Source: an uncultured Holophagales bacterium (lineage in GTDB: Bacteria; Acidobacteriota; Thermoanaerobaculia; Multivoradales; UBA5704). Taken from it: DNA of 64,000 bases. Shown here piece by piece: positions 3,562 to 64,000 of this stretch. The first letter of the stretch is position 1; every line of letters starts with the position of its first letter. A program made the translations under genes and the position numbers. Location: contig CAWJGT010000025.1 of NCBI GenBank assembly GCA_963842525.1, positions 320,001-384,000 of the forward strand, written 5' to 3'. Below the pieces are notes generated by a model. The model was not told where the DNA came from, ran no database searches, and saw only the letters and a list, made by a program, of their open reading frames with translations.

Positions 3562-6150
3562 GTGATGTCAGGCTCCAGCCGTTCCCTCCTGACTGCCATC
3601 GCCGCTGTCCTCCTCGCCGGAGCCGTGAGCGCTGGTCCGGCGGCCCCGCCGAAGCCCGAGACGCCTGAGACGCCTGAAGACACTGCCAACCTTCAGCCCC
3701 GGCACAAGAAGTTTCTCGAAGAGGTCGCGCCCCTGCTCCGCGATCCGGAGCGCCAGGCCTTCCTCACCCTGACTAAGGACTACCAGCGCGACACCTTCAT
3801 CCGGCGCTTCTGGGAAGTGCGCGACCCGCACCCGCAGACGGCGCGCAACGAATTCCGTGAGCGCTGGGAGGAGCGGACCGGCCTCGCCCGTGAACGCTTC
3901 GGCAACCTCGAGGAGGACCGTGCCCGCCTGCTCCTCTGGAACGGCCCGCCGAAGGCGAGCTTCCAGGCCCAGTGCGACACCCTTCTGCCGGTCGAGGTCT
4001 GGAGCTACGACGGGACCGACCGCCTCAAAGGAAGCTTCACGCTGATCTTCGTCTCGCCCCAGGGCTCCTCGCGCGGCCCCTTCCGCCTCTGGTACCCGAG
4101 CCAGGGGATCCAGGCGCTCCTTGCGCCGGAGGCCCGCCTGCGCACCCAGGACGAGGGAGGCCTCGAACAGGCCCTCGACCGCTGTCCCCGCGGCGGCGAG
4201 GTGGTCGGAGCCCTCGGGCTCGCCGCCGACTGGGGGCGCATCGAGGAGAAGGTCCAGCTCGCCCCGGACCCGGGCACCGAGTGGCTCACCACCTTCCTGG
4301 CCCGTTCGACCGACCTGCCCGGCGGAGCGCAGCCCTTCCCTGCCCAGGTCGACGTCTCCTTCCCCGCCCGCTACGGCAGCCGCACCGTGATGCAGACCCT
4401 GGTGAGCGTGCCGCGGCAGGAGGTGCAGCCGGAGCGGCTGAAGGACAGCGCGGCCTACAATTTCGTCGTCGACGGCGAGATCCTCTACCGCGGCGAGCTG
4501 TTCGAGCAGTTCCGCTACCGGTTCAACTTCCCCGAGGCCGAGGCGCAGGCGGCGACCCTGCCCATGGTCTTCCAGCGCTATCTGCGGCCAGGAAGCTACA
4601 CGCTGGTGCTGCGGATCGAGGACACCGGCGGCAAGCGCTTCTTCCGCGAGCAGAGGGAGATGGAGATCCCGCCGGTCGAGGCGGCCGGGACGGCGGTGGC
4701 CGCGGCGCCGGCATCCGCGCCTTCCCCAGGGCCGGCGCCCTCCAGTCCCGGTGCGGAGGGCGCGCTCGCCGAAGCCAACGCACCCTCCTTCGGCAGCGAC
4801 GAGCAGAGCATCCGGATCATCGCGCCGCCGCCGGGGCTGATGACCGGCAAGGCACGGCTGGAGGCCCAGACGACCGGTGACGGGATCTCCAAGGTCAGCT
4901 TCCGGCTGAACGGCAAGCCGGTTCTCACCAAGGCCCGGCCGCCCTACAGCGTCGAGCTGAACCTGGGGGACGCGCCGCGCATCCACACCCTCGAAGCCGT
5001 GGCCCTGGCCGCGGACGGCCGCGAGCTGGCGCAGGACCAGATCCTCCTGAACAGCGGCCCGCAGCGCTTCTCGCTCCGCCTCGTCGAGCCGCAGCAGGGC
5101 CGCATGTACCAGGAGAGCCTGCGCGCCCAGGCCCAGGTCGACGTGCCCGAGGGAGAGCAGCTCGACCGGGTCGAGGTCTGGTTCGGCGAGACCCTGGTCG
5201 CCACCCTCTTCCAACCCCCGTTCGTGCAGCCCATCCTGCTGCCGCCGAACGCAGGCCTGTCCTACGTCCGCGCCGTCGCCTATCTGAAGGACGGCAACTC
5301 GACCGAGGACACGGCGGTGATCAACGCCCCCGACTACATGGAGCAGATGGACGTCGACTTCGTCGAGCTCTATACGACCGTCGCGGACAAGAAGGGGAGC
5401 CCTGTCGAGGGGCTGACCGCCAAGGACTTCACGGTCGTCGAGGACGGCGTGCCGCAGGAGGTCCGGCGCTTCGAGATGGTGCGCGACCTGCCGGTCTATG
5501 CCGGCATCCTGCTCGACACGTCCTCCTCCATGGGCGAGAACGAGGGGCAGAAGCTCGACGAGGCGGTCAAGGCGGGCCTGCGCTTCTTCGAGACCGTGAT
5601 CCAGCCCAAGGACCGGGCGGCCGTCTTCACCTTCAACGACACGGCGAGCCTGGCCGTGCGCTTCACCAACCAGATCGACGTCCTCTCGGCCGGGCTGAAC
5701 GGCCTCACCGCCGAGGGGAACACGGCGCTCTACGACAGCATCATCTATACCTTGTACTACTTCGGCGGGCTCAAGGGGAAGAAGGCCATCGTCCTGCTCT
5801 CGGACGGCCAGGACGTGGGCAGCCACTACGGCTTCAACGAGGCCCTGGACTATGCGCGGCGCAGCGGCGTGGCGATCTACGCCGTGGGGATCAACCTGCA
5901 GCATCGGGACGTGGACGTCCGGTCGAAGCTGCAACGGCTGGCCGACGAGACGGGCGGCAGGCCCTTCTTCATCAACGCGGCCACCGAGCTGGGCCGGGTG
6001 TTCGAGAGCGTCGAGAGCGAGCTGCGCTCGCAGTACCTGCTGGCCTACCAGTCCTCGAAGCAGGGAGGGGACGAGAAGTTCCGCACCGTCGAGGTGAAGG
6101 TGTCCCGCCCCGGCCTCGAGGCCAAGACCATCCGGGGCTATTACCCCTGA
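3562..6150 (+). CDS. Secreted GWxTD-like domain + Ig-like + VWA domain protein (paralogue 2)
   Basis: Co-linear with 131..2785 ([17 protein letters not shown]; [16 protein letters not shown]; [11 protein letters not shown]). MIDAS DTSSSM. Confidence 0.85.
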
Positions 6151-10569: not shown

Positions 10570-12505
10570 ATGTGGACGGAGCTGAGGCGGGAGCTGGCGG
10601 GCGAAATCGCCCGCACGATCCGGGAGTGCTTCGGGGTCGAGCACGAGCCTGTCCTCGAAGTCCCCCCGCGGCGGGAGCTCGGCGACCTGGCCTCCCCCGC
10701 GGCCATGCAGCTCGCCCGGGTGCTCAAACGCAATCCGCGCGCCATCGCCGAAGAGCTGGCCGGCGCCCTCCGCCGGCCGCCGCTGGTGCGTGACGTCCGG
10801 GTCCAGGGCGCCGGCTATCTCAACCTGTACCTCGACCGCCGCGCCTTCGCCGCCGCCGCCCTCGATGCCCGGTGGCTGGGTGGTGGAGACGCTGGAGATC
10901 ACCGACCCGGCAAGGTCGTCATCGAGCACACCAACATCAACCCGAACAAGGCGGCGCACATCGGGCACCTGCGCAACGCCGTCCTGGGCGACGTCCTCGG
11001 CCGCGCCCTGCGCAGCCTCGGCGTTCCGGTCGAGATCCAGAACTACATCGACGACACGGGCGTCCAGCTCGCCGACGTGGTGGTCGGCTTCCTCGACCTG
11101 CGCGGCTTGTCGCAGGAGGAGGTCGAAGCGATCCCCGAGCCCTTCGACTACTACTGCTGGGACCTCTACAGCGAGGTGGGCCGCTGGTACGAGGAGGATC
11201 CCGCCCGCCAGCGGCTGCGCCGCGAGACCCTGCACGAGCTGGAGGCCGGCAGCGGGCCGCGCGCCGACCTCGGCCGGCTGGTGGCCCGGCGGGTGGTGCG
11301 CTGCCACCTCGCCACCATGCGCCGCCTCGGCGTCGGCTACGACCTGCTGACCCGCGAGAGCGAGGTCCTGAAGTAGGCACTTCTTCGACAAAGCCTTCGG
11401 GCTGCTCAAGGAGAGCGGCGCCGTCCATCTGGAAAAGGAAGGCAAGAACGCCGGCTGCTGGGTCATGCCGCTCTCCCAGAGCGAGGAGTTCGCCGGCCTG
11501 GAGGACCCGGACAAGGTGATCGTCCGCTCCGACGGCACGGTGACCTACGTGGGCAAGGACATCGCCTACCAGCTCTGGAAATTCGGCCTGCTCGGCGAAG
11601 ACTTCCTCTACCGCTTCTGGCAGGAGGAGGGGGTCTGGGAGACGTTCGGCGAGGATGCCACGGACCAGCACCCCGACTTCGGCCACGCGCAGCGGGTGAT
11701 CAACGTCATCGACGCCCGCCAGAGCTATCTCCAGAAGATCGTGCGCGCCGGCCTCCAGGCCCTCGGCCACAAGGAGGAGGCGGACCGCTCGGTCCATTTC
11801 GCCTACGAGATGGTGACCCTCTCGCCGGCCACCGCCCGCCAGCTCGGCTACCTGGACGAGGGAGAGGAGGCGGGCAAGGGCCTGGAGATGTCGGGGCGCA
11901 AGGGGATCGGCGTCAAGGCCGACGACCTGATCCACCAGCTCCAGTCGAAGAGCCGCGAGGAGATCGCGGCGCGCAACCGCGACCTGGCGGACGAGGAGCT
12001 GGACCGCCTGGCGCGCGAGATCGCCACCGCCGCCCTGCGCTTCTTCATGGTCAAGGCGACCACCACCCGGCTGATCGCCTTCGACTTCGACGAAGCCCTG
12101 AGCTTCGAGGGCGATTCCGGCCCCTACCTCCAGTACTCGCTGGTGCGGGCCAAGAACATCCGCCGCCGGCTGCGCGAAGAGGGCCTCGCCGACGAGGTCA
12201 CGGCCGGCGAGGTGGAGACGCTCGGCGAAGAGCATTTCGGCGAGGACCTCTGGGACCTGATCCTGGAGGTCGCGCAGACCGGCGAGGCGGTGGAGAAGGC
12301 GGCGGAGAGCCTCGAGCTGTCGCTGATCGCCCGCCACGCCCTGGGCTTGGCGCAGTGCTTCAACGCCCTCTATCACAAGCACCCGATCCTCCACGAGCCG
12401 GACCCCCAGGTCCGCGCCGCCCGCCTGGCCACGGTACAGGTCTTCGGCCGCGGCCTCGAAGCGGTCTGCGACCTGCTGGGCGTGCCGGTCCCGGACCGGA
12501 TGTAA
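10570..12505 (+). CDS. argS: Arginine--tRNA ligase, split by one extra base at ~11374-11377
   Basis: EHTNINPNKAAHIGHLRNA (HIGH), MSGRKG, EGDSGPYLQY, C-terminal GVPVPDRM. After 'aag tag g' the shifted frame continues HFFDKAFGLLKESG into the second ORF. Confidence 0.92.
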
Positions 12506-12522
12506 ATAGACCGGAGGTCCCC

Positions 12523-13236
12523 ATGGACGCGGACCGGCCCCGTTCTTCCTCCAAATCGTCACCCTGGATCTGGCTGGGCTGCGGCTGCGGCATCCTCGTG
12601 GCTCTCGTCATGGCCGGCGTGACCTGGTTCGGCTACAAGGCGGGCAAGAAGATGGAGAAGGCCCGGGAAGACCCGGTGGCCCGCGAGCAGATGACCCGGG
12701 AGGTCCTCGCCTTCGAGAAGCCGCCCCCCGGCTACTATCCCACGGGCGCCTTCTCGATCCCGATGCTGACCGACATCGCCATCTTCTCCGACCGGCCGCC
12801 GGAACCCGGCGAGCAGGAGAATCACAGCCTGGGCGATCGCGGCTTCATCTTCCTCAGCATGCACGGCTGGATGGCCGACAAGGAGGAGCTGGCGAGCTTC
12901 CTGGAGGGCAAGGCCAAGCGGCCGGGCTGGCTCGGGAGGTCGGGCGCCAACACCGACATCGGCGAGGTCCTGGGGCGCGGCAAGATCGAGGTCGAAGGCC
13001 GTGAGCTGCTCTATATGGCCACCCGCGGCGACGTGAACATGCAGGGCAGCAGCAGGGAGGGGCTCGTCACCTGGCTGACCGTCGACTGCCCCGCCGACCG
13101 GCGGGCCCGGCTCGGCCTTTGGTTCAACCCCGATCCAGCCCCCGGCAAGCCCCTCCAGGGAGCCGCTCTCGCAGGCACCGCCGCCGACCCGCAGGCGATC
13201 CGCGAGTTTGCGAGGCATTTCCGGTTCTGCGGGTAG
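12523..13236 (+). CDS. Hypothetical single-pass membrane protein
   Basis: RBS ggagg. N-terminal PWIWLGCGCGILVALV transmembrane segment. Confidence 0.75.
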   Translation: MDADRPRSSSKSSPWIWLGCGCGILVALVMAGVTWFGYKAGKKMEKAREDPVAREQMTREVLAFEKPPPGYYPTGAFSIPMLTDIAIFSDRPPEPGEQENHSLGDRGFIFLSMHGWMADKEELASFLEGKAKRPGWLGRSGANTDIGEVLGRGKIEVEGRELLYMATRGDVNMQGSSREGLVTWLTVDCPADRRARLGLWFNPDPAPGKPLQGAALAGTAADPQAIREFARHFRFCG

Positions 13237-14319
13237 ATGCGAGCGACCTGGGACGAGTGGATGGGCCTGCCTTTCCTGGGCAACCCGGTCGGGAGCTGGC
13301 TGACCGCGGCCCTGATCGCCGTCGCTGCCTATCTCGTGCTGCTCCTGGTCCGGCGACTGGCCGTCCGGCGTCTCGTGCAACTCGCCGGCCGGACGCGGAC
13401 GGACGTCGACGACTTCGTCGTCGCGACGCTGCAGCGCACCCGCCGCGTCCTGCTCCTCATCCCGGTCGTCTATTTCGCCTCCATCTCCCTCGACCTGCCT
13501 CCCAAAGTCGACAGCACCCTCCGCTCGTCGTCCATCCTGGCGGTCCTCCTGCAGCTCACCTTGTGGACCCTGGCGGGGATCAACTTCTGGGTGGCGCGCA
13601 CCCGCCGCCGCCGGCTGGAGGTGGACGCCGCATCGGCCACCCTGATCGGCGCCCTCGGCTTCGTCGGCAAGGTCGTCCTCTGGACGGTCCTCCTCCTGGT
13701 CGCCCTGGACAACGTGGGAGTAGACGTCACGGCCCTGGTCGCCGGCCTCGGGATCGGCGGCGTGGCCGTGGCCCTGGCGCTCCAGAACGTCCTGGGCGAC
13801 CTGCTGGCTTCGCTGTCGATCGTCCTCGACAAGCCGTTCGTCATCGGCGACACGATCCAGATCGACGACTTCACCGGCAAGGTGGAGAGCATCGGCCTCA
13901 AGACCACCCACCTGCGGAGCGTCTCCGGCGAGCAGCTCATCTTCTCCAACAGCGACCTGACGCGCAGCCGCATCCGCAACCACAAGCGGATGGCCGACCG
14001 CCGGGTGGGGCTTCAGGTCACTGTCGACCCGGCGACGCCGCCCGACAAGCTGGAGAGGGCCGTGGCCCTGCTACGGGAGGTCGTCGAAGCGCAGCAGCAG
14101 GTCCGCTTCGACCGTGCCCATCTCGCGCGGCTCTCCGACCGGGGACCACAATTCGAGCTGGTGTACTTCGTCCTCTCGACCGACTACAACCTACACATGG
14201 ACATCCAGCAGGTGGTCCTCCTCGACCTGCTGCGTCGCTTCGGAGAGGAGGGGATCACGCTCGCCCTGCCCGCGCCGACCATGCCGGGGCCACTCCCCGG
14301 GCCGCCGGGCCGCGGCTGA
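13237..14319 (+). CDS. Small-conductance mechanosensitive channel (MscS family)
   Basis: ALVAGLGIGGVAVALALQNVLGDL, DKPFVIGD, GKVESIGLKTT, LIFSNS. Confidence 0.92.
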   Translation: MRATWDEWMGLPFLGNPVGSWLTAALIAVAAYLVLLLVRRLAVRRLVQLAGRTRTDVDDFVVATLQRTRRVLLLIPVVYFASISLDLPPKVDSTLRSSSILAVLLQLTLWTLAGINFWVARTRRRRLEVDAASATLIGALGFVGKVVLWTVLLLVALDNVGVDVTALVAGLGIGGVAVALALQNVLGDLLASLSIVLDKPFVIGDTIQIDDFTGKVESIGLKTTHLRSVSGEQLIFSNSDLTRSRIRNHKRMADRRVGLQVTVDPATPPDKLERAVALLREVVEAQQQVRFDRAHLARLSDRGPQFELVYFVLSTDYNLHMDIQQVVLLDLLRRFGEEGITLALPAPTMPGPLPGPPGRG

Positions 14320-14332
14320 TATCCTCGCCTGC

Positions 14333-14614
14333 ATGGAGTGCCGTGCCGGCTGTGGGGCGTGCTGTATCGCCCCGTCGATCTCTTCCCCCATCCCCGGGAT
14401 GCCGCACGGAAAGCCTGCGGGCGTGCGTTGCGTCCAGCTCAGCGCAGACAACCTCTGCCTGCTCTTCGGCAAGCCCGAGCGCCCGGCCGTCTGCTCCCAT
14501 CTGCGGCCCACCGAGGACATGTGCGGCCAGACGACGGAGGAGGCCCTGGAACGTCTGACGCTGTTGGAGCGGTTGACGGCCCCTGACCTCAACTCCCGTC
14601 GAGCAGGTACTTGA
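14333..14614 (+). CDS. YkgJ-like cysteine cluster protein
   Basis: MECRAGCGACCIAPSISSPIPGM...CVQL...C...RPAVC. Confidence 0.85.
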   Translation: MECRAGCGACCIAPSISSPIPGMPHGKPAGVRCVQLSADNLCLLFGKPERPAVCSHLRPTEDMCGQTTEEALERLTLLERLTAPDLNSRRAGT

Positions 14615-15341
14615 GCATCCGGGCCGGGTAGGCGAGGAACTGGCGGGTGACCTGGTAGTGCTCGGTGTCCTGGTAGTCGATGCGCGCGATGCCTTCCTCG
14701 CCGAGCTGATAGATCCAGGCTTCGGGGTAGGCCATGAGCACGGGCGAGTGGGTGGCGATCACGAACTGTGAGCCGGCCCGCACGAGCTCGTGGAGGATGC
14801 GCAGCATGGCGAGCTGCCGCATGGGGGAGAGGGCCGCCTCGGGCTCGTCGAGAAGATAGAAGGCATCGCCCCCGAAGCGCTCCTTGAAGACCGCCAGGAA
14901 CGACTCGCCGTGCGACTGCTCATGCAGCGAGACTCCGCCGAAAGCCGGCAGGATCGGCGGCCCGAGGCCAGGCTCGGCGTCGAGGCGCTCGATTTCGGTC
15001 GCCAGGTTGAAGAGGCTCTCGGCACGCAGGAAGAAGCTGTCGCGCGGCCGGTGGACCCCCTTGACCAGGCGCAGGTACTCTCCGAGCTCGGAATGGGACG
15101 GGCGGGTTCCGAAGGAGAAGTTGCGGCTGCCTCCCTCGGGGTTGAGGCCGAAGGCCACGGCGATCCCCTCGATCAGGGTGGACTTGCCGGTTCCGTTCTC
15201 GCCGATCAGGAAGGTGACCTTCGGGTGCAGCTCCAGGGAGGTGAACTTGCGCAGGACCGGCAGGACGAACGGGTACTCCTCGAACGAGGGGACTCGTTCG
15301 CGGCGCAGTTGCACCTCCCGGACGAACTGTTCGGACGTCAC
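14589..15341 (-). CDS. ABC/AAA-family ATPase (stand-alone)
   Basis: Walker A GENGTGKST, QSHGESF signature, LLDEPEAALSP, IATHSP. GTG start at 15341. Confidence 0.88.
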   Translation of the reverse strand: MTSEQFVREVQLRRERVPSFEEYPFVLPVLRKFTSLELHPKVTFLIGENGTGKSTLIEGIAVAFGLNPEGGSRNFSFGTRPSHSELGEYLRLVKGVHRPRDSFFLRAESLFNLATEIERLDAEPGLGPPILPAFGGVSLHEQSHGESFLAVFKERFGGDAFYLLDEPEAALSPMRQLAMLRILHELVRAGSQFVIATHSPVLMAYPEAWIYQLGEEGIARIDYQDTEHYQVTRQFLAYPARMLKYLLDGS

Positions 15342-62829: not shown

Positions 62830-63425
62830 ATGGGAGACGAGCGCGTGAGGAGCCACGACCAGCTCACGAAGGACCTCCTACGAGCCTTCTTCGCCGACTT
62901 CCTCGCGCTGACGCTGCCGGATGTCTCGGGGCGCCTGCGGCTGGAGGAGCATGTCTTCGTGGACAAGGAGAGCTTCACCGACTGGCCGACCGGCAGCCGG
63001 CGGGAGCTGGACCTCCTGGCCCGCGTCCCGGTCGAGGGAGAGGAGGACTGAAGGTGGAGTGCCTGCGGCGGATTGCCGGGGGAGACTTGACGCAGCTCCA
63101 GCGCTTTCTGCTGGTCAACTTCGTCGAAACCTATCTACAATTGACGGGGTCGCAGGCCGCGGAATACGCTCGTCTGCGACAGCTTGCCGAAAACCGGGAG
63201 GTGATGACCATGGAGATGACCTGGGCGGAGCAGATGGAAATGCGCGGGATCGAGAAGGGTGTGGAGGCCCTGCGGGAGGTGGTCCTCCGCCAACTTGAGC
63301 AGCGCTTTGGAAGGGTGCCGGGGACGACGAAGCGGAAGATTGGGAAGATCAAGTCCCTCGAGCCGCTCACCGAGATCGCCGAGAAGGTCTTTGTGGTCGA
63401 CTCGATCGACGAGCTCGGCCTGTAG
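62830..63425 (+). pseudogene. Rpn/YhgA-like nuclease gene with internal deletion; C-terminal DUF4351-like part intact
   Basis: N-terminal HDQLTKDLLRAFF.DFL...ELDLLARV stops at 63051 and abuts out of frame ...LKVECLRRI...FVETYLQL...LRQLEQRFG. The catalytic HVExE region is absent. Confidence 0.7.
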
Positions 63426-63439
63426 GTTGGTTGGGGACT

Positions 63440-63462
63440 AAAAAAAGGCCCCTTGCGGGGCC
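63440..63462 (-). terminator. Rho-independent terminator of micropeptide cassette 2
   Basis: GGCCCC-GCAA-GGGGCC-T7 on the minus strand. Confidence 0.85.
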
Positions 63463-63528
63463 AGAAAGAGACGCCGGTCCCCAGGGGCGAGCCGGGTACC
63501 GGTTCAGAAAAACTTCACATTCGCCTTC

Positions 63529-63579
63529 CTACTCGGCCAGGGTCATGCCGCCGGCCTTCACGTTCGCCTTGACTTTCAT
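63529..63579 (-). CDS. 16-aa micropeptide MKVKANVKAGGMTLAE
   Basis: RBS ggagg 5 nt before ATG. Paralogue of 63755..63805 and 63818..63868. Confidence 0.8.
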   Translation of the reverse strand: MKVKANVKAGGMTLAE

Positions 63580-63618
63580 GGTTGCCTCCGCCGTTTGTGT
63601 TGCTGTCCGTTCATTCAC

Positions 63619-63650
63619 TAACGCGTAAAGCGGTGGCCAAAGCGATCACG
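63619..63650 (-). promoter_or_regulatory. Putative ECF-type promoter CGTGATCGCTTT-N12-ACGCGTTA (copy 2)
   Basis: 32-bp element conserved with identical spacing at 63898-63929. Confidence 0.6.
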
Positions 63651-63687
63651 GGGCTTGCGAGGTTTTTGGGCGGGCTTGAAGGGAGGT

Positions 63688-63740
63688 AAAAAGGGTCGAG
63701 GGTCGGCTCCCGCGTCGTCCGCCGCAGGAGCCGACCCTCG
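63688..63740 (-). terminator. Terminator-like hairpin after micropeptide cassette 1
   Basis: 14-bp perfect stem (63697-63710 / 63727-63740) followed by ACCCTTTTT on the minus strand. Confidence 0.7.
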
Positions 63741-63754
63741 GAGGGAGCCTGGAG

Positions 63755-63805
63755 CTAGTCCGACAGCATCATGCCGCCGGCCTTCACATTCGCCTTGATC
63801 CTCAT
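63755..63805 (-). CDS. 16-aa micropeptide MRIKANVKAGGMMLSD
   Basis: RBS gaggggga. Starts 12 nt after the stop of the upstream paralogue. Confidence 0.8.
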   Translation of the reverse strand: MRIKANVKAGGMMLSD

Positions 63806-63817
63806 GATCTTTCCCCC

Positions 63818-63868
63818 TCAGTCGCCGATAAGGACGCCGCCAGCCTTCACGTTCGCCTTGATCTTCAT
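63818..63868 (-). CDS. 16-aa micropeptide MKIKANVKAGGVLIGD
   Basis: RBS aaggag. Synonymous differences among the copies (AAC/AAT, GCT/GCC, AAA/AAG) keep the peptide leader intact. Confidence 0.8.
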   Translation of the reverse strand: MKIKANVKAGGVLIGD

Positions 63869-63897
63869 GCCAGTCTCCTTTTCGCCTGTTCATCCCT

Positions 63898-63929
63898 TAA
63901 CGCGTAGAACCGCGGCGAAAGCGATCACG
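63898..63929 (-). promoter_or_regulatory. Putative ECF-type promoter CGTGATCGCTTT-N12-ACGCGTTA (copy 1)
   Basis: Conserved with 63619-63650; 29 bp upstream of the first micropeptide ATG. Confidence 0.6.
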
Positions 63930-64000
63930 CGATCGGCGAGTTTTTTTCAGGCGGGGGTGCGGGCGCTGCAGGACACCGGCGGGCCGCCGTGGGTCTTGCG

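Follow-up and report, generated by a model that had tools for sequence, protein, structure and literature searches.

Peptides released by ATP-binding cassette (ABC) exporters that carry a C39 peptidase domain are made with a leader ending in Gly-Gly (GG), and in the canonical leader, which is about 15–30 residues long, positions -4, -7 and -12 lie on a short helix and are hydrophobic (PMC6363468, PMC12219008). According to the account in PMC6363468, cleavage is lost if the residue at -4 or -7 is charged, and about 13–14 leader residues are required. Among sigma factors of the extracytoplasmic function (ECF) type, some are controlled by a Ser/Thr kinase. The kinase PknS, as portrayed in PMC13147305 and PMC8999054, consists of an N-terminal extension of ~83 residues, a kinase domain, one transmembrane (TM) segment and periplasmic tetratricopeptide repeats (TPRs), and its pathway runs by kinase-to-ECF phosphorylation. 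Here we describe a locus at which both types of module bear on the same small genes. It lies at the right-hand end of a 64,000-nucleotide (nt) stretch, referred to as the window (G000:C25:320001-384000), from an uncultured Holophagales bacterium whose genome, G000, comprises 9.95 Mb at 67.5% G+C. Three 51-nt open reading frames (ORFs) encode 16-residue peptides, which share a leader ending in GG and differ in the last five residues. Our reading, which we hold with a probability of roughly 70%, is that these ORFs are real genes, that their products are substrates of a C39 pump, and that they are expressed from the promoter of an ECF sigma factor encoded nearby.

All three ORFs are on the minus strand, each behind a purine-rich Shine-Dalgarno (SD)-like stretch. 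ORF1 (63818..63868; MKIKANVKAGGVLIGD and a stop, MKIKANVKAGG-VLIGD) follows the ribosome-binding site (RBS) aaggag; ORF2 (63755..63805; MRIKANVKAGGMMLSD and a stop, MRIKANVKAGG-MMLSD) lies 12 nt past ORF1 and has gggggaaag on its 5' side; ORF3 (63529..63579; MKVKANVKAGGMTLAE and a stop, MKVKANVKAGG-MTLAE) follows ggaggc. Of a fourth copy, 15 nt remain (AAGGCGAATGTGAAG, codons K-A-N-V-K), at 63513..63527 on the same strand, without a start codon or RBS. A preliminary description of this DNA had reported the three ORFs and the decayed fourth copy, and it turned out to be accurate in every particular. When the whole of G000 was searched in six frames with the strict leader, only ORF1–3 matched. 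The back-translated leader pattern, applied to 40 relatives, found one further locus, in G005, a member of the same genus, where a homolog of the upstream gene and the same promoter-like motif accompany four micropeptide ORFs, each complete from start and SD to GG and stop; these ORFs differ from those of the window by synonymous changes. A looser leader pattern gave 37 matches in 16 of 92 genomes of the same bacterial family (the family genomes, designated by G numbers; L numbers designate loci or stretches and C numbers the contigs of G000), versus none for a reversed-pattern control, and it exposed a fourth peptide gene in G000, on contig C30 (MKIKTKVKAGGIVMTGAD). Reading the flanks of the matches brought the collection to 56 genes in 21 loci, in 16 of the 92 genomes, with 56 distinct DNA sequences and 53 distinct peptides. 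The peptides are 16 residues long in 39 cases, 18 in 13, 17 in two, and 21 and 22 in one case each.

These ORFs go beyond chance, because the looser pattern gave 37 matches and its control none, and because the variation is concentrated at third codon positions. Over leader codons 2–11 of the 56 genes, the mean entropy is 1.02 at the third position versus 0.38 at the first and 0.31 at the second. The invariance of Met1, Lys4, Lys8 and Gly10–11 was partly forced by the search patterns, while the third-position excess was not. The invariant Ala-9 is encoded by four different codons, and the glycines at residues 10–11, present in 56/56 genes (partly a product of the patterns), by three to four different codons per position. 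Every one of the 56 genes has an SD-like sequence on its 5' side and a stop after 16–22 codons. Frame, RBS and GG are thus kept in homologous loci, as expected of genuine conserved genes, and judged from these sequences their coding status can be regarded as established short of direct detection.

The leader consensus, M-[KR]-x-K-[ATS]-x-[VIL]-K-A-G-G, is 11 residues long and basic, and it is followed by a core of five to seven residues. Two core types dominate the 56 genes: type A, [VIM]-[LIVMT]-[LIMFT]-[GSAT]-D, and type B, [IV]-[TV]-x-[TSA]-G-[AV]-D. The initial proposal of a diversified pentapeptide was half right. The cores do vary, but VLIGD occurs seven times, in several genomes and genera, and 47 of the 56 cores terminate in Asp or Glu. 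It had also been named as a possible objection that the peptides might match a precursor family already characterised; no such family was found in Pfam or NCBIfam, where scans of family members of 21–186 residues gave sub-threshold chance matches only. In our literature searches on the leader VKAGG, on double-glycine/C39 systems and on kinase-linked peptide signalling, neither the leader nor the circuit was found described.

The neighbours of the 21 loci were clustered, and the loci were then scanned in six frames with hidden Markov models of the clusters. Beyond local synteny, only five neighbours recur: the ECF sigma factor, a kinase with TPRs, an HlyD adaptor, an ABC protein with a C39 peptidase (C39-ABC) and a second ABC protein without the peptidase (ABC2). 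The HlyD, C39-ABC and ABC2 genes are found directly upstream of the peptide genes, on the same strand, in 10 of the 21 loci (L036, L037, L038, L040, L042, L044, L047, L051, L054 and L055, two of which are cut by contig ends). In G005 both modules occur together, with C39-ABC, ABC2, ECF, kinase, motif and four peptide genes in one row on one strand. A single exporter of this type is encoded in G000, on contig C30, immediately 5' of the fourth peptide gene. Orthologs of this exporter, with 64% identity or more across the first 450 residues, were found in 13 of the 16 peptide-positive family genomes versus 4 of the 76 peptide-negative ones; this is a strong association, within which related genomes are not independent. 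Gene neighbourhood and co-occurrence thus tie the Gly-Gly to C39-peptidase ABC exporters, as had been suspected from the peptides themselves.

The C39 domain matches PF03412 above its cutoff. When the domain from G000 was aligned with those of PCAT1 and ComA, the Gln, the Cys (D-C-G), the His (H-F-V-V) and the Asp (D-P) were all conserved; in the entry for an inactive variant, the Cys of D-C-G is Ala. By analogy, these four residues would be the catalytic ones, as are Gln21, Cys27, His101 and Asp117 in the account of LahT given in PMC6363468.

The other module lies directly upstream of ORF1. The gene that runs off the window (63947..64000, minus strand; last 17 codons ...GGPPVSCSARTPA, stop 63949-63947) is the 3' end of a receptor-type Ser/Thr kinase gene, which extends to G000:C25:386754 and encodes 935 residues. 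The kinase has an N-terminal extension, a Pkinase domain at 87–368, one hydrophobic segment at ~408–434 (judged by eye) and nine TPR_12/TPR_10 stretches reaching the C-terminus. Since the TPRs come after a single hydrophobic segment that follows a Hanks kinase domain, they should be extracytoplasmic. The conjecture that this gene might encode a receptor or a maturase therefore needs revision: a TPR domain is present, but the protein is a TM Ser/Thr kinase paired with an ECF sigma factor, and neither a cytoplasmic TPR receptor of the RRNPP type nor a maturase. The sigma gene (198 residues) precedes the kinase gene, which overlaps its end, and its product matches PF07638 with 195 bits and TIGR02999 with 219.6 bits, the cutoff of the latter being 126. 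An ECF factor of this type next to a Ser/Thr kinase gene, with no anti-sigma gene, is the arrangement by which kinase-regulated ECF factors are recognised. The ECF and kinase-TPR genes are directly upstream of the peptide genes, on the same strand, in 8 of the 21 loci, the window included (L001, L036, L037, L038, where the kinase is fragmented, L041, L046, L049 and L054). Near region 2.2 the sigma factor reads GHTLETHD-LIHEAFLRL (motif placed by eye), with Thr51 and Thr54 invariant and with E and D also there.

Close relatives of the kinase were traced as an orthogroup of 14 genomes plus a fragment in G011. It is distinct, its members scoring 940 bits or more at 58% identity or above, while the next matches are at 51–53% (~830–850 bits) and paralogs at 48% or less. 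Eight members have KAGG peptide genes downstream. In six others (G099, G013, G081, G052, G066 and G064; loci L192, L194, L195, L196, L197 and L198, respectively) a related motif stands before a gene whose product has a signal-peptide-like N-terminus, judged by eye, and in G070 the downstream cargo was not recognised. In the kinase tree, the kinase of the window groups with those of G005, G074 and G089, all of which have type-A arrays. Peptide and protein cargo alternate in the sister clade, where G063 (peptide) is sister to G013 (protein) with support 92/98. G099 and G013 have neither a leader-pattern match nor an exporter ortholog. The module of kinase and sigma factor swaps cargo between close relatives. 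This kinase type does not need a KAGG peptide, because its orthologs drive protein genes and in two of their genomes neither such a peptide nor the exporter ortholog was found; the peptides are therefore best read as output of the module, and a role as its ligand is unsupported. Two side observations belong here. The cargo in G099 is a Cys-rich protein with repeated PADYDGDGRADL units, and a hairpin in the 5' untranslated region (UTR) is common to G063, G099 and G013.

Between the kinase gene and ORF1 lies the first copy of a promoter-like bipartite motif, TGATCGCTTTCGCCGCGGTTCTACGCGTTA, that is TGATCGCTTT-N13-CGCGTTA (63898..63927, minus strand), 29 nt 5' of the ATG. The second copy (63619..63648, minus strand) heads the cassette of ORF3. 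The full motif has only these two copies in the 9.95-Mb genome, each heading a cassette, and 10 copies in 8 genomes among the 92, versus none for the control. All 10 copies fall in the interval that separates the kinase stop codon from the ATG of a KAGG peptide gene. When the two cassettes were aligned with loci from three other species, the boxes were near-invariant across species and the 5' UTR behind them variable. The regions upstream of the ECF genes were searched and do not contain the motif, and the peptide genes that follow the exporter are without it. The motif would be the target promoter of the ECF sigma factor, a reading strengthened by the fact that it travels with the sigma/kinase pair whatever gene follows.

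Taken together, the following sequence of events can be proposed. Transcription of each cassette would start at a dedicated promoter, of which each has a copy of its own, and the ECF sigma factor, whose gene lies two genes upstream, would recognise this promoter. The activity of the sigma factor would be set by the co-encoded TM Ser/Thr kinase, with its TPRs beyond the membrane segment, for which PknS/EcfK and PknT/EcfP are precedents. The precursors would then be cut after the Gly-Gly by the C39 domain of the HlyD/C39-ABC/ABC exporter and pumped out; in G000 the cutting exporter would be the one on C30, beside the fourth family member. The products would be free VLIGD, MMLSD and MTLAE. For unmodified peptides of five to seven residues, a diffusible signal is, by inference only, the most plausible role.

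Several observations weigh against this scheme. The leader has Lys at -4 in 56/56 genes and Ala, Thr or Ser at -7, and with 11 residues it has no -12, so that it lacks the hydrophobic positions and the 15–30 residues of the canonical leader; cleavage at GG is accordingly a deduction from the link to the exporter and not from leader similarity. Neither module is near 6 of the 21 loci, and one further locus has exporter fragments only. The query from G000 found no exporter ortholog in 3 of the 16 peptide-positive genomes (G084, G089 and G010). In G000 itself, the exporter is unlinked to the window cassettes, being on contig C30, and its two ABC genes each contain a repeat element inserted in frame, so its function is not assured. 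The exporter proteins are below the NHLP cutoffs (HlyD 39–45 vs 156, C39-ABC 157–172 vs 853, ABC2 95–105 vs 709). Region 2.2 of the sigma factor reads ETHD and not the S/T-only motif described for ECF43, and the pairing of sigma factor and promoter is deduced solely from their positions.

The exporters also gave some observations of their own. The repeat inserts in G000 (L055 ~12486–15293, minus strand, and C30:106397-106541) add ~47 Pro/Gly-rich residues in frame and are copies of a ~145-nt palindromic repeat, for which a 201-nt query gave 1075 blastn matches in G000, in both orientations at the same sites. Such a spread of in-frame hairpin repeats into genes is reminiscent of Rickettsia palindromic elements. 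Among the four peptide-negative genomes with an exporter ortholog, that of G002 is intact, those of G020 and G001 are fragmented and that of G060 stops at a contig end; no KAGG peptides were found beside any of these four. The G002 exporter (L216 ~5300–6130, minus strand) is followed by a gene with carrier-protein-like LGLDSL and AMP-ligase-like sequence, judged by eye, and this pump of the same type may serve a different cargo. At three loci of genus g5 (L042, L045 and L050), the peptide genes adjoin an ABC importer operon with a TOBE_2 ATPase, two presumed permeases and a presumed binding protein of ~345 residues, the last three named from position and size only. This adjacency may be plain shared synteny.

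The leader is also found outside the family genomes. A scan with one genome per species gave at least 120 stretches, and there are 80 loci among the matches listed. Among these, 59 of the 80 have the matching ORF behind an SD-like sequence, and the other 21 look like chance. In flanks of 8 kb or less around the 59, likewise among the matches listed, exporter genes are found at 20, ECF, kinase or TPR genes at 12, and either at 28. Members among the matches listed come from Blastocatellia, Pyrinomonadaceae, Thermoanaerobaculia, Bryobacterales, Pirellulaceae, Singulisphaera, Nannocystis and metagenome-assembled genomes of Pseudomonadales, and one is Methylomicrobium lacus (L123). In at least five phyla, members of the family are again accompanied by a dedicated exporter. 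Four loci among the matches listed carry the same arrays as the family genomes, and these are from Thermoanaerobaculia or Acidobacteriota, in keeping with the earlier remark that the host is not a Firmicute. In an evenly drawn phylum sample, 1 of 400 other genomes matched, and the control also gave one match; the family is therefore patchy and not a phylum trait.

Beyond the family genomes, core size ranges, among the matches listed, from five residues to repeat proteins of 186 residues. In the repeat proteins of other phyla (40–186 residues; L096 2866–3426, L094 7428–7829, L124, L073, L097 and others), L-x-V-K-S-x-V-K-A-G-G units alternate with x-N-H-N-Q units, and no match was found in Pfam or NCBIfam. 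They are possibly multi-unit precursors. A homolog search with a 41-residue relative gave 18 proteins, which are called hypothetical where they are named and have no Pfam domains. In several loci, the gene for a TPR_10/12 protein of ~400 residues comes between the KAGG peptide gene, which it directly follows, and HlyD/C39-ABC/ABC2 (L085 5899–7188, L123 1630–2862, L094 6180–7427, L097 788–1972 and L079 2320–3285). These loci span Gammaproteobacteria, Planctomycetota and Acidobacteriota, and the proteins have no evident signal peptide by eye. In G010 (L027/L053), the peptide ORF continues without a change of frame into a TPR gene of this kind. At L096, from a different acidobacterial class, a kinase gene is followed by a KAGG peptide gene.

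The alternative that survives best is an autoinducing loop, in which the exported peptide is the ligand of the kinase TPRs and the kinase acts through the ECF sigma factor on the peptide promoter. We consider such a loop possible and clearly less probable than the output reading. The genes for kinase-TPR, dedicated promoter and peptides are contiguous in eight genomes, joined by the exporter in G005, and the restriction of the full motif to these sites in G000 is what a self-contained loop would predict. TPR receptors of the RRNPP group bind peptides of five to seven residues, and genes for TPR proteins directly adjoin those for KAGG peptides in other phyla, as does a kinase gene in the acidobacterial class of L096. 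The cargo of the kinase orthologs speaks against the loop: six close orthologs drive signal-peptide proteins, the protein-cargo genome G013 is sister to the peptide-cargo genome G063, and the kinase type needs no such peptides in G099 and G013. The stand-alone TPR proteins of other phyla would, with no evident signal peptide, meet the peptide in the cytoplasm. The suggestion that the upstream gene is the receptor of these peptides has thus lost ground, as nothing marks them as the kinase ligand and the evidence favours output. The loop would amount, with the same modest likelihood, to a circuit like Com or Blp in which a Hanks kinase and an ECF sigma factor replace the two-component system. 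It is similarly doubtful that Gram-negative soil bacteria have here a quorum-sensing circuit of new build, with 5–7-residue peptides released by a C39 pump from precursors of 16–18 residues and bound by a periplasmic TPR domain. If this were true, the peptides would be the first named ligand of a kinase-ECF pair, the only promoter of the sigma factor would drive peptide genes, and the KAGG leader class would be common to Acidobacteriota, Planctomycetota, Myxococcota, Verrucomicrobiota and Gammaproteobacteria.

Somewhat less probable, and in our view unlikely, is that the peptides which we take as output of the module are antagonists, either microcin-like or enzyme-inhibiting, induced when the kinase senses a threat. 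PknS/EcfK, which induces a type VI secretion system (T6SS) against amoebae, would be a precedent, and the secreted proteins driven by the sister modules suggest an output of the defence or interaction type. The variant arrays resemble bacteriocin cocktails, and cleaving ABC exporters of Gram-negative bacteria are described as exporters of microcins. However, mature forms of 5–7 residues are far below class II microcins, whose signal sequences alone comprise 15–18 residues according to PMC12219008. No immunity-like gene recurs at the 21 loci, and the retention of VLIGD in several genera suits a conserved receptor better than an arms race.

A minimal ribosomally synthesised and post-translationally modified peptide (RiPP) had been offered in the preliminary description as a second possibility, and we rate it slightly lower still. 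The core, or leader and core, would be modified before export by an enzyme encoded elsewhere, for example by cyclisation via the C-terminal Asp. Multi-copy arrays in which the leader stays constant and the core varies are typical of RiPP precursors, and the acidic residue that ends most cores would suit such chemistry: with the first Gly numbered 1, its free N-terminus could close a macrolactam with the Asp at position 7 in type A (GGVLIGD) or 9 in type B (GGITLTGAD). Yet no radical-SAM, YcaO, ATP-grasp, lanthipeptide or lasso-type gene recurs at the 21 loci (unlinked enzymes were not searched), and the peptides match no Pfam or NCBIfam precursor family. A lasso peptide in particular is ruled out, there being no lasso genes and no Thr at -2; lasso precursors have Thr at this leader position.

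Apart from the shortness of the ORFs, little speaks for the last reading, that they arose by chance within a small RNA or are attenuator leader peptides for a downstream gene: conservation has largely refuted it, with frame, start, SD, GG and stop kept in 56 genes and variation concentrated at third codon positions, and an Rfam scan of 63200–64000 gave just one chance match, on the terminator hairpin. Attenuator peptides are ruled out, as a terminator closes each cassette and the next gene is convergent, which leaves nothing to attenuate. Type I toxins are ruled out as well, since the peptides are too short and not membrane-like.

The layout of the locus agrees with its expected form of motif, peptide, peptide and terminator, twice over, with the second peptide gene of cassette 2 decayed. 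Cassette 1 is closed by a hairpin like that of an intrinsic terminator, with 18 pairs and then a T-run (63697..63740, minus strand), and cassette 2 by a terminator-like hairpin with a T7 run (63447..63462, minus strand). In an alignment, the two cassettes are duplicates of each other, and the remnant at 63527-63513, identical to part of the ORF2 leader, aligns to the second gene of cassette 1. The next gene (63054-63425, plus strand) is convergent with the cassettes. A tRNA search of the region found none. Upstream of the ECF gene is a gene for a TIR and AAA_35/STAND protein of 428 residues (L001 4856–6142, plus strand), adjoined by two IS66 transposase fragments (L001 6128–7559, minus strand); together they cover G000:C25 ~387856-390559. 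Exporter genes occupy this place in G005, which suggests a rearrangement in G000.

Genes of 16 codons escape gene callers, and this family is unannotated, its longer relatives all being entered as hypothetical. It shows that a leader need not obey the canonical rules to be paired with Gram-negative C39 pumps, and screens built on the classical Gly-Gly leader therefore miss the family. For most kinase-coupled ECF sigma factors, neither input nor target is known. Here, a recognisable promoter comes with defined outputs, which, depending on the species, are micropeptides or secreted proteins. If the peptides are signals, peptide communication in Acidobacteriota could be tested with synthetic pentapeptides.

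Among described systems, those closest in export are ComC/ComAB, MccV/CvaAB and ProcA/LahT. As in these, the leader ends in Gly-Gly directly before the core, and the precursor genes are beside genes for a C39-ABC protein with the catalytic set and an HlyD-type adaptor. In contrast to these, the leader has 11 residues instead of 15–30 and the core only 5–7, and a peptidase-less second ABC gene is always present. The leader is basic with an alternating K-V-K-x-x-V-K pattern and has Lys instead of a hydrophobic residue at -4, which sets it apart from canonical Gly-Gly leaders in general, and an ECF sigma factor and a Hanks kinase stand where control of the ComC type has a two-component system. 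The order HlyD, C39-ABC and peptidase-less ABC is that of the NHLP/Nif11 cassette (TIGR03794, TIGR03796, TIGR03797), and NHLP-type models are among the best-scoring named models for the exporter proteins. However, the cargo here is without an NHLP or Nif11 leader, and no modifying enzymes are linked.

A further comparison is with the RRNPP systems (Rap-Phr, PlcR-PapR, AimR-AimP), which likewise have a short precursor, a C-terminal peptide of 5–7 residues and a TPR protein encoded adjacent to it. RRNPP receptors are cytoplasmic, act on DNA or phosphatase targets and are found in Firmicutes and their phages, and the peptides leave via Sec and return via Opp. Here, in contrast, the TPRs are part of a membrane kinase, and export is putatively by a C39 pump. 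PatS/HetC of heterocyst-forming cyanobacteria is similar in that it combines a Gram-negative micropeptide, a C-terminal pentapeptide proposed as the signal and an implicated C39-ABC protein, while there is no sequence similarity and no link to a sigma factor or kinase; in the available account of that system, the substrate of HetC is unidentified and no GG-leader gene lies near hetC.

In regulation, the locus is most like PknS/EcfK of Xanthomonas citri and PknT/EcfP of Vibrio parahaemolyticus, with an ECF factor of the PF07638/TIGR02999 type, a Hanks kinase and no anti-sigma factor, and the layout of the kinase (N-terminal extension, kinase, one TM segment, TPRs) is the one described for PknS. 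It differs in output, which consists of micropeptide genes here and of T6SS or polymyxin-resistance genes there. In ECF43, as outlined in PMC8999054, the acidic DAED motif of region 2.2 is absent and a phospho-acceptor Thr is present; the sigma factor here differs in having ETHD in place of an S/T-only motif, with its two Thr invariant. The peptides are thus a new, very short variant of Gly-Gly-leader export peptides, with a leader rule of their own and wired to a kinase-coupled ECF sigma factor, and not a new kind of system.

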